From: a phage
DNA: 338 nt
Reading direction: 5' to 3' (one strand)
Sequence record: AH003497.2
Part shown: one piece after another, positions 1 through 338 of the stretch
How positions within the stretch are numbered: position 1 is the first letter of the stretch
Layout of the letters: the number at the start of each line of letters is the position of its first letter
Made by a program: the position numbers and the translations under genes
Notes under the pieces: generated by a model
Database searches by the model: none
What the model was told of the DNA's origin: nothing
What the model saw: only the letters and a program-made list of their open reading frames with translations

Positions 1-11
1 GGGGATACGTG

Positions 12-35
12 CCCCTCCCCACCTACCCGCGCCCC
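12..35 (-). other. Mirror copy of the G-quadruplex motif (G-rich on the - strand, C-rich i-motif-type strand on +)
   Basis: The + strand reads cccctccccacctacccgcgcccc, the exact reverse complement of 304-327. It is the same element by inverted-repeat symmetry, not independent evidence. Confidence 0.45.
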
Positions 36-73
36 TAACATTTTTATTTCCGTCTGTCAATACCCCCTGCATC

Positions 74-110
74 CGATAGGCCCGAACTATCACAAACGGA
101 AAAGCGATAG
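74..110. repeat. Triad of GATAG/CTATC pentamers: GATAG 75-79, CTATC 87-91, GATAG 106-110 (CGATAG hexamer at 74-79 and 105-110)
   Basis: Direct reading: gatag, 7-bp spacer, ctatc, 14-bp spacer, gatag. The innermost copy ends exactly at the inner boundary of the 110-bp inverted repeat. Function is unknown. Confidence 0.5.
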
Positions 111-119
111 CCCAAAACA

Positions 120-219
120 NNNNNNNNNNNNNNNNNNNNNNNNNNNNNNNNNNNNNNNNNNNNNNNNNNNNNNNNNNNNNNNNNNNNNNNNNNNNNNNNN
201 NNNNNNNNNNNNNNNNNNN
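120..219. other. Assembly or scaffold gap (run of 100 N); true length and content unknown
   Basis: Exactly 100 consecutive N characters. A length of exactly 100 is the common convention for a gap of unknown size, so coordinates and distances across it are not physically meaningful. Confidence 0.97.
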
Positions 220-228
220 ATTTTATTC

Positions 229-265
229 CTATCGCTTTTCCGTTTGTGATAGTTCGGGCCTATCG
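229..265. repeat. Mirror copy of the pentamer triad: CTATC 229-233, GATAG 248-252, CTATC 260-264 (CTATCG at 229-234 and 260-265)
   Basis: Direct reading; the same element as 74-110 by inverted-repeat symmetry. Confidence 0.5.
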
Positions 266-303
266 GATGCAGGGGGTATTGACAGACGGAAATAAAAATG
301 TTA

Positions 304-327
304 GGGGCGCGGGTAGGTGGGGAGGGG
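304..327 (+). other. Canonical G-quadruplex motif (four G-tracts of 3 or more, loops 3/5/1 nt)
   Basis: GGGG(304-307) cgc GGG(311-313) taggt GGGG(319-322) a GGGG(324-327) fits the G3+ N1-7 G3+ N1-7 G3+ N1-7 G3+ pattern. Only the motif is seen; folding is not demonstrated. Confidence 0.45.
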
Positions 328-338
328 CACGTATCCCC

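Follow-up and report, generated by a model that had tools for sequence, protein, structure and literature searches.

The perfect 110-bp inverted repeat of a two-piece phage record is almost certainly the inverted terminal repeat of phage PRD1

What kind of element consists of two exactly complementary 110-bp arms that give way abruptly to unrelated sequence on either side of a gap? The question is raised by a stretch of phage DNA of 338 nt, referred to here in its entirety as the window, which consists of two 119-nt pieces of sequence separated by exactly 100 N (120–219). Direct comparison showed that the reverse complement of 229–338 equals 1–110 at 110 of 110 positions (chance probability ~4^-110 = 6e-67). 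The nine bases inside each arm are unlike: read inward, the left arm runs into CCCAAAACA and the right arm into GAATAAAAT, the latter appearing as ATTTTATTC in its plus-strand form at 220–228. An exact 110/110 repeat with non-matching 9 bp inside had already been described in an earlier reading of the letters without database searches (hereafter the sequence-only reading), and the recomparison bears it out. An automated repeat search gave arms of 1–169 and 170–338 at 96%, because positions with N in both arms were scored as matches; the true repeat length is 110 nt.

Both pieces were found to be the ends of one linear genome. By string comparison, window 1–119 is 100% identical to bases 1–119 of NC_001421.2 (Enterobacteria phage PRD1, 14,927 bp, linear), and window 220–338 is 100% identical to 14809–14927, its final 119 bases. 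Searches with blastn against a phage collection matched 119 of 119 nt at 100% to the first 119 bases of AY848689.1, NC_001421.2 and M22161.1, and the 110-nt arm at 100% to M30146.1, the record of the PRD1 right end. AY848689.1 likewise agrees at 100% with both window pieces, flanks included, at its two ends. The perfect inverted repeat of the complete PRD1 genome is also exactly 110 nt long, and past it the two genome ends are unrelated, matching at 7 of the following 21 positions. It is virtually certain that the window joins the two ends of PRD1 (Tectiviridae, Alphatectivirus) in a two-piece record and that the 110-bp repeat is the PRD1 inverted terminal repeat (ITR). Since both pieces are genome ends, the 100 N replace 14,689 bp (PRD1 120–14808), and the picture of the gap as a short interior has to be given up. 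The linear genome physically ends at window bases 1 and 338 (genome bases 1 and 14,927); the repeat therefore cannot extend further outward, as the sequence-only reading had thought it might. The window and the PRD1 reference entries (NC_001421.2, M22161.1 and M30146.1) are all alike in their arms, 9-nt flanks, 110-nt length and position at the physical ends, the sole difference being that the window lacks the 14,689-bp interior and has 100 N in its place. The PRD1 ITR is already well known, as a textbook origin of protein-primed replication, and the identification adds nothing new to it. The PRD1 termini were reportedly sequenced for the first time in 1986–87, by Savilahti & Bamford and by Gerendasy & Ito. 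A short record of two inverted ends and 100 N can represent both termini of a linear viral or plasmid molecule; the 'gap' of such ends-only records may conceal an entire genome, and their edges may be true ends of the DNA. The parts of the window are as follows.

1–110, plus strand: left ITR of PRD1 (genome 1–110), left origin of protein-primed replication; 100% identical to NC_001421.2, annotated in M22161.1 as "5' inverted terminal repeat" 1–110.
1–4, plus strand: terminal GGGG, the 5' end bearing the terminal protein, whose complement is the 3'-CCCC template reiteration; read from the sequence, with the mechanism as summarized in PMC5175343, which cites Caldentey et al. 1993.
1–18, plus strand: outermost 18 nt of the ITR, invariant, with a mirror copy at 321–338; no variable column among the 14 arms of 7 genomes.
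19–75, plus strand: variable central ITR, mirrored at 264–320; 25 of 26 variable columns, none discordant between the arms of one genome.
76–110, plus strand: inner 35 nt of the ITR, conserved, with a mirror copy at 229–263; varies at position 90 alone (in the right arms of PR3 and L17).
111–119, plus strand: first 9 nt of the unique left end, the start of the 'promoter region' upstream of genes VIII and I; M22161.1 misc_feature 111–232.
120–219, no strand: 100 N, placeholder for PRD1 120–14808, 14,689 bp with all 31 annotated genes; from genome comparison.
220–228, minus strand: last 9 nt of the unique right end (PRD1 14809–14817), between the right ITR and the right early promoter (genes XII and XIX); identical to NC_001421.2.
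229–338, minus strand: right ITR of PRD1 (genome 14818–14927), right origin of protein-primed replication; 100% identical to NC_001421.2, annotated in M30146.1 as 'inverted terminal repeat'.

The annotated surroundings of the arms contain the components of a protein-primed replication system. According to NC_001421.2, the terminal protein gene (VIII) occupies 233–1012 and the gene for the DNA polymerase (I), a protein-primed family B enzyme, 1016–2677, while the genes for ssDNA-binding proteins, XII and XIX, are located at the right end. The same order is recorded in M22161.1, in which the ITR (1–110) is followed by the promoter region (111–232) and then by the terminal protein and DNA polymerase genes, and M30146.1 gives, for the other end, the mirror-image inverted terminal repeat, the right early promoter and genes XII and XIX. 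The terminal reiteration is present as GGGG at 1–4 and CCCC at 335–338 and is invariant in the 7 genomes compared below. Six-frame translation of a 119-nt piece yielded one open frame per strand (plus frame 0, minus frame 2); the annotated PRD1 genes begin at 233 on the left and finish at 14687 on the right, beyond both pieces. No RNA family was detected on either strand (Rfam, E ≤ 10).

Among the alternatives, the one that survives best is an origin of the window in an engineered linear replicon or ITR cassette built from PRD1 rather than in the phage genome itself. Synthetic replicons flanked by PRD1-based ITRs do exist (bioRxiv 10.64898/2026.09.28.754915), but the native 9-nt flanks (PRD1 111–119 and 14809–14817) suit the native genome better than a cassette cut at the ITR edges, and we regard such an origin as very improbable. 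The feature would be the PRD1 ITR in either case.

Far less probable still is that the arms are the terminal inverted repeats of an IS, a MITE or a composite transposon in a bacterial replicon. The general shape alone suits this explanation, since a perfect inverted repeat at the element ends and a sharp inner edge are also features of IS, MITE and Tn3-family transposon ends. A search of the arm for further genomic copies, which the sequence-only reading had proposed, returned none in species genomes or E. coli and nothing beyond chance matches in plasmids. Specifically, a PRD1-type 31-mer and a family-conserved 32-mer had 0 exact matches in bacteria and archaea (185,579 species, one genome each), no match was found in 5,426 complete E. 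coli genomes, and the plasmid search (blastn, E ≤ 10) gave three 32-nt Sinorhizobium matches at E=4, which were taken as chance. The zero matches in the 185,579 species genomes lead us to reject a mobile element, a prophage and a host repeat. Within PRD1 itself, no 12-mer of the arm recurs in the genome interior, and neither a transposase nor a recombinase is listed among the 31 genes annotated in NC_001421.2. Target-site duplications outside the arms, another feature that had been suggested for inspection, have no room because the arms stop exactly at the linear genome ends and have no flanks. The PRD1 ITR is thus unlike IS, MITE and Tn3 ends in having no transposase, host copies or target-site duplications; moreover, PRD1 ends are free DNA ends with a protein primer, whereas those of IS, MITE and Tn3 elements are junctions with host DNA. 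The candidates put forward from the letters alone, namely an IS/MITE-like element, an invertible segment or an inverted duplication, fail together on these observations: the arms are the ends of linear PRD1, no other copy turned up in the bacterial, E. coli or plasmid searches, and no transposase or invertase is annotated.

Exceedingly improbable to the same degree is an assembly or sequencing artefact, in which the palindrome would come from a fold-back chimera or from the head-to-head scaffolding of two graph branches. Two 119-nt pieces joined by 100 N do resemble a scaffolding product, and pieces that are common for 110 nt and then fork resemble a branch in a de Bruijn graph. However, four independent PRD1 records (M22161.1, left end; M30146.1, right end; and the complete AY848689.1 and NC_001421.2) contain the 110-nt repeat, as do six related phages that were sequenced separately, and the 9-nt tails run on into the real left and right unique regions of PRD1. 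The sequence-only reading had argued from the sharp inner edge for a genuine terminal inverted repeat and against a fold-back chimera, and in this it was right. Least credible of all is a site-specific inversion switch, for although the inverted repeats do enclose an interior as those around an invertible segment would, no invertase or recombinase is annotated in PRD1, the arms lie at physical DNA ends, and gene order and orientation are the same in all seven genomes.

The identification of the arms as PRD1 ITRs places them in a replication scheme that is documented in the literature. Tectiviruses have linear dsDNA genomes of ~15 kb with ITRs and a terminal protein covalently attached to both 5' ends, and the terminal protein primes their replication, which begins from both ends (PMC5175343). 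For PRD1, the summary in PMC5175343, citing Caldentey et al. 1993, places initiation at the 4th base of the 3'-CCCC template, with three sliding-back steps. A passage in PMC11886824, citing Savilahti & Bamford 1993, describes a displaced strand coated by the ssDNA-binding protein P12, for which annealing of the ITRs as a panhandle, or annealing with the complementary strand, is proposed; the annealing model is also invoked there for restored homology between the ends, with direct evidence for the panhandle said to be 'still lacking'. The 110-bp PRD1 ITRs flanking linear DNA form an orthogonal E. coli replicon driven by PRD1 replication proteins, in which P12 and P19 are dispensable (bioRxiv 10.64898/2026.09.28.754915).

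Following these reports, each ITR end of the window would be an origin of protein-primed replication, and because both carry the same sequence, either end could fire. Initiation would join dGMP to P8 opposite the 4th base of the 3'-CCCC end, after which three slide-backs would recover the terminal bases and processive replication with strand displacement would proceed. The genes for P8 and P1 lie directly inside the left ITR. The displaced strand would then anneal its own ends as a panhandle, or anneal with the complementary strand, which would regenerate a duplex origin and copy one arm onto the other. Such arm-to-arm copying would account for the identity of the arms within a genome alongside their divergence between phages. 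A single arm folded as ssDNA showed no significant structure (z = -1.07; 24 of 200 shuffles fold as well), and the relevant pairing would therefore be arm to arm, in a panhandle, and not a hairpin within one arm.

Similar organization is found in phi29, Bam35, Toil, GC1 and adenovirus, all of which have linear dsDNA, a 5' terminal protein, an ITR and a short terminal reiteration with internal initiation and sliding-back or jumping-back. Nevertheless, the PRD1 ITR has no detectable sequence similarity to the ITRs of these five. Their lengths vary as well, from 6 bp in phi29 to 74 bp (imperfect) in Bam35, 72 bp (imperfect) in Toil and 326 bp in GC1. The initiating base is the 2nd in phi29, the 3rd in Bam35 and the 4th in PRD1, and the number of back-steps also differs (PMC5175343).

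The closest comparison is provided by the relatives of PRD1. An alignment of 14 ends from 7 genomes (PRD1, PR5, PR4, PR772, PR3, L17 and Burkholderia phage CSP1) showed that the six relatives also carry the arms at both ends of a linear genome, that the ITRs are 110–111 nt long in all 7, and that the inner boundary falls at the same alignment column. Beyond this boundary, the left end continues as CCC[A/G]AAACA and the right end as GAATAAAAT in the 7 genomes. The 26 variable ITR columns are unevenly distributed, with 25 in positions 19–75 and one at position 90, so that positions 1–18 are invariant and 76–110 are invariant apart from 90. Within each genome, both arms agree at every variable column except position 90, where PR3 and L17 depart from this rule. 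Compared with the PRD1 reference, the other alphatectiviruses (PR4, PR5, PR772, PR3, L17, Burkholderia phage CSP1 and Erwinia phage RH-42-1) have the same 110–111 nt, boundary, first 18 nt, inner ~35 nt and neighbour genes, but differ in an ITR identity of 80–97%, the differences being concentrated at 19–75, and PR3 and L17 differ further in one mismatch between their own two arms. The ITR is more diverged than the remainder of the genome both between PRD1 and PR3 (80.2% in the ITR, 96.4% in the interior) and between PRD1 and PR772 (90.1% and 97.2%, respectively).

As the arms agree within genomes yet diverge between phages, they evolve in concert. Judged by this alignment, concerted evolution fits replication-linked copying from arm to arm, and not a recent duplication. 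Of the reasons that the sequence-only reading had offered for the perfect identity of the arms, gene conversion comes close to the accepted replication-linked repair and can stand, while a very recent duplication and an artefact can be dropped. The invariant first 18 nt probably represent the core origin recognized by the complex of terminal protein and DNA polymerase, an assignment that we infer from their conservation. The fast-diverging block at 19–75 might be a specificity determinant that co-evolves with the terminal protein and polymerase, or else a recombination hot spot, kept matched by replication-linked conversion of the arms, although we consider this proposal rather unlikely. Its divergence pattern has been visible since the comparative tectivirus genome papers, and any novelty would therefore lie only in the specificity function.

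Several further features emerged from the alignment. Divergence among alphatectivirus genomes is greatest in the central ITR block (identity down to 80%, versus 96% in the interior), which is identical between the arms of each genome. Kinship in the ITR and in the interior is discordant, PR4 and PR772 being 98.2% identical in the former and 93.5% in the latter; this discordance suggests that ITRs may have been exchanged by recombination. The near-identical phages PR3 and L17 share a single T/A mismatch between their arms at ITR position 90, which implies either that arm homogenization is not instantaneous or that the same sequencing difference is present in both records.

The sharp inner edge of the repeat is the point at which a shared origin sequence gives way to two different early-promoter regions. 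On the left, a promoter scan identified a sigma-70-like site at PRD1 144–173, within the annotated 111–232; on the right, an early promoter is annotated 145–172 from the right end (M30146.1; genes XII and XIX). Both are positioned outside the window, which contains just 9 nt of each unique region. The annotated right promoter was missed by the scan because its -35 hexamer is too weak for the scan's rule. Correcting for the one extra base by which the M30146.1 annotation is shifted, the right early promoter lies at 144–171 from the right end (~14757–14784), and the left and right early promoters start equally far, at position 144, from their own genome ends. The sequences between ITR and promoter are unrelated between the two PRD1 ends.

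A perfect TTGACA also occurs inside the ITR, on the plus strand at 279–284 in the right arm and on the minus strand at 55–60 in the left arm. The stretch bearing it, window 279–307 (plus strand) and its mirror 32–60, is oriented outward to the DNA end in both arms. At the corresponding -10 position there is only a poor hexamer (TAGGGG/TTAGGG), and no site was called there by the promoter scans; this TTGACA is probably not a promoter.

The outermost bases differ among public records: PR3 opens with TGGGG at either end, M30146.1 carries a single additional base, and AY441783.1 (PR772) carries two. In many recent alphatectivirus entries, including PRDemerald, PRDazure and the PKJ series, the sequence begins 9–43 nt inside the ITR. 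Evidently, assemblies often truncate or mis-call ITR ends that are capped by protein.

Outside the named isolates, the PRD1-type 31-mer had 0 matches in IMG/VR, and the conserved 32-mer was found there in 2 contigs, one of which is identical to PR4. In IMG/VR and JGI metagenomes together, the conserved 32-mer was located only at the ends of tectivirus-sized contigs (~14.4–15 kb). The second contig, IMGVR_UViG_3300015214_001290 (= Ga0172382_10008414), is a metagenomic alphatectivirus of 14,388 nt. Its left end is short by ~500 nt, and its right end begins at about ITR position 32 and is a PR772/PR5-like mosaic of ITR variants.
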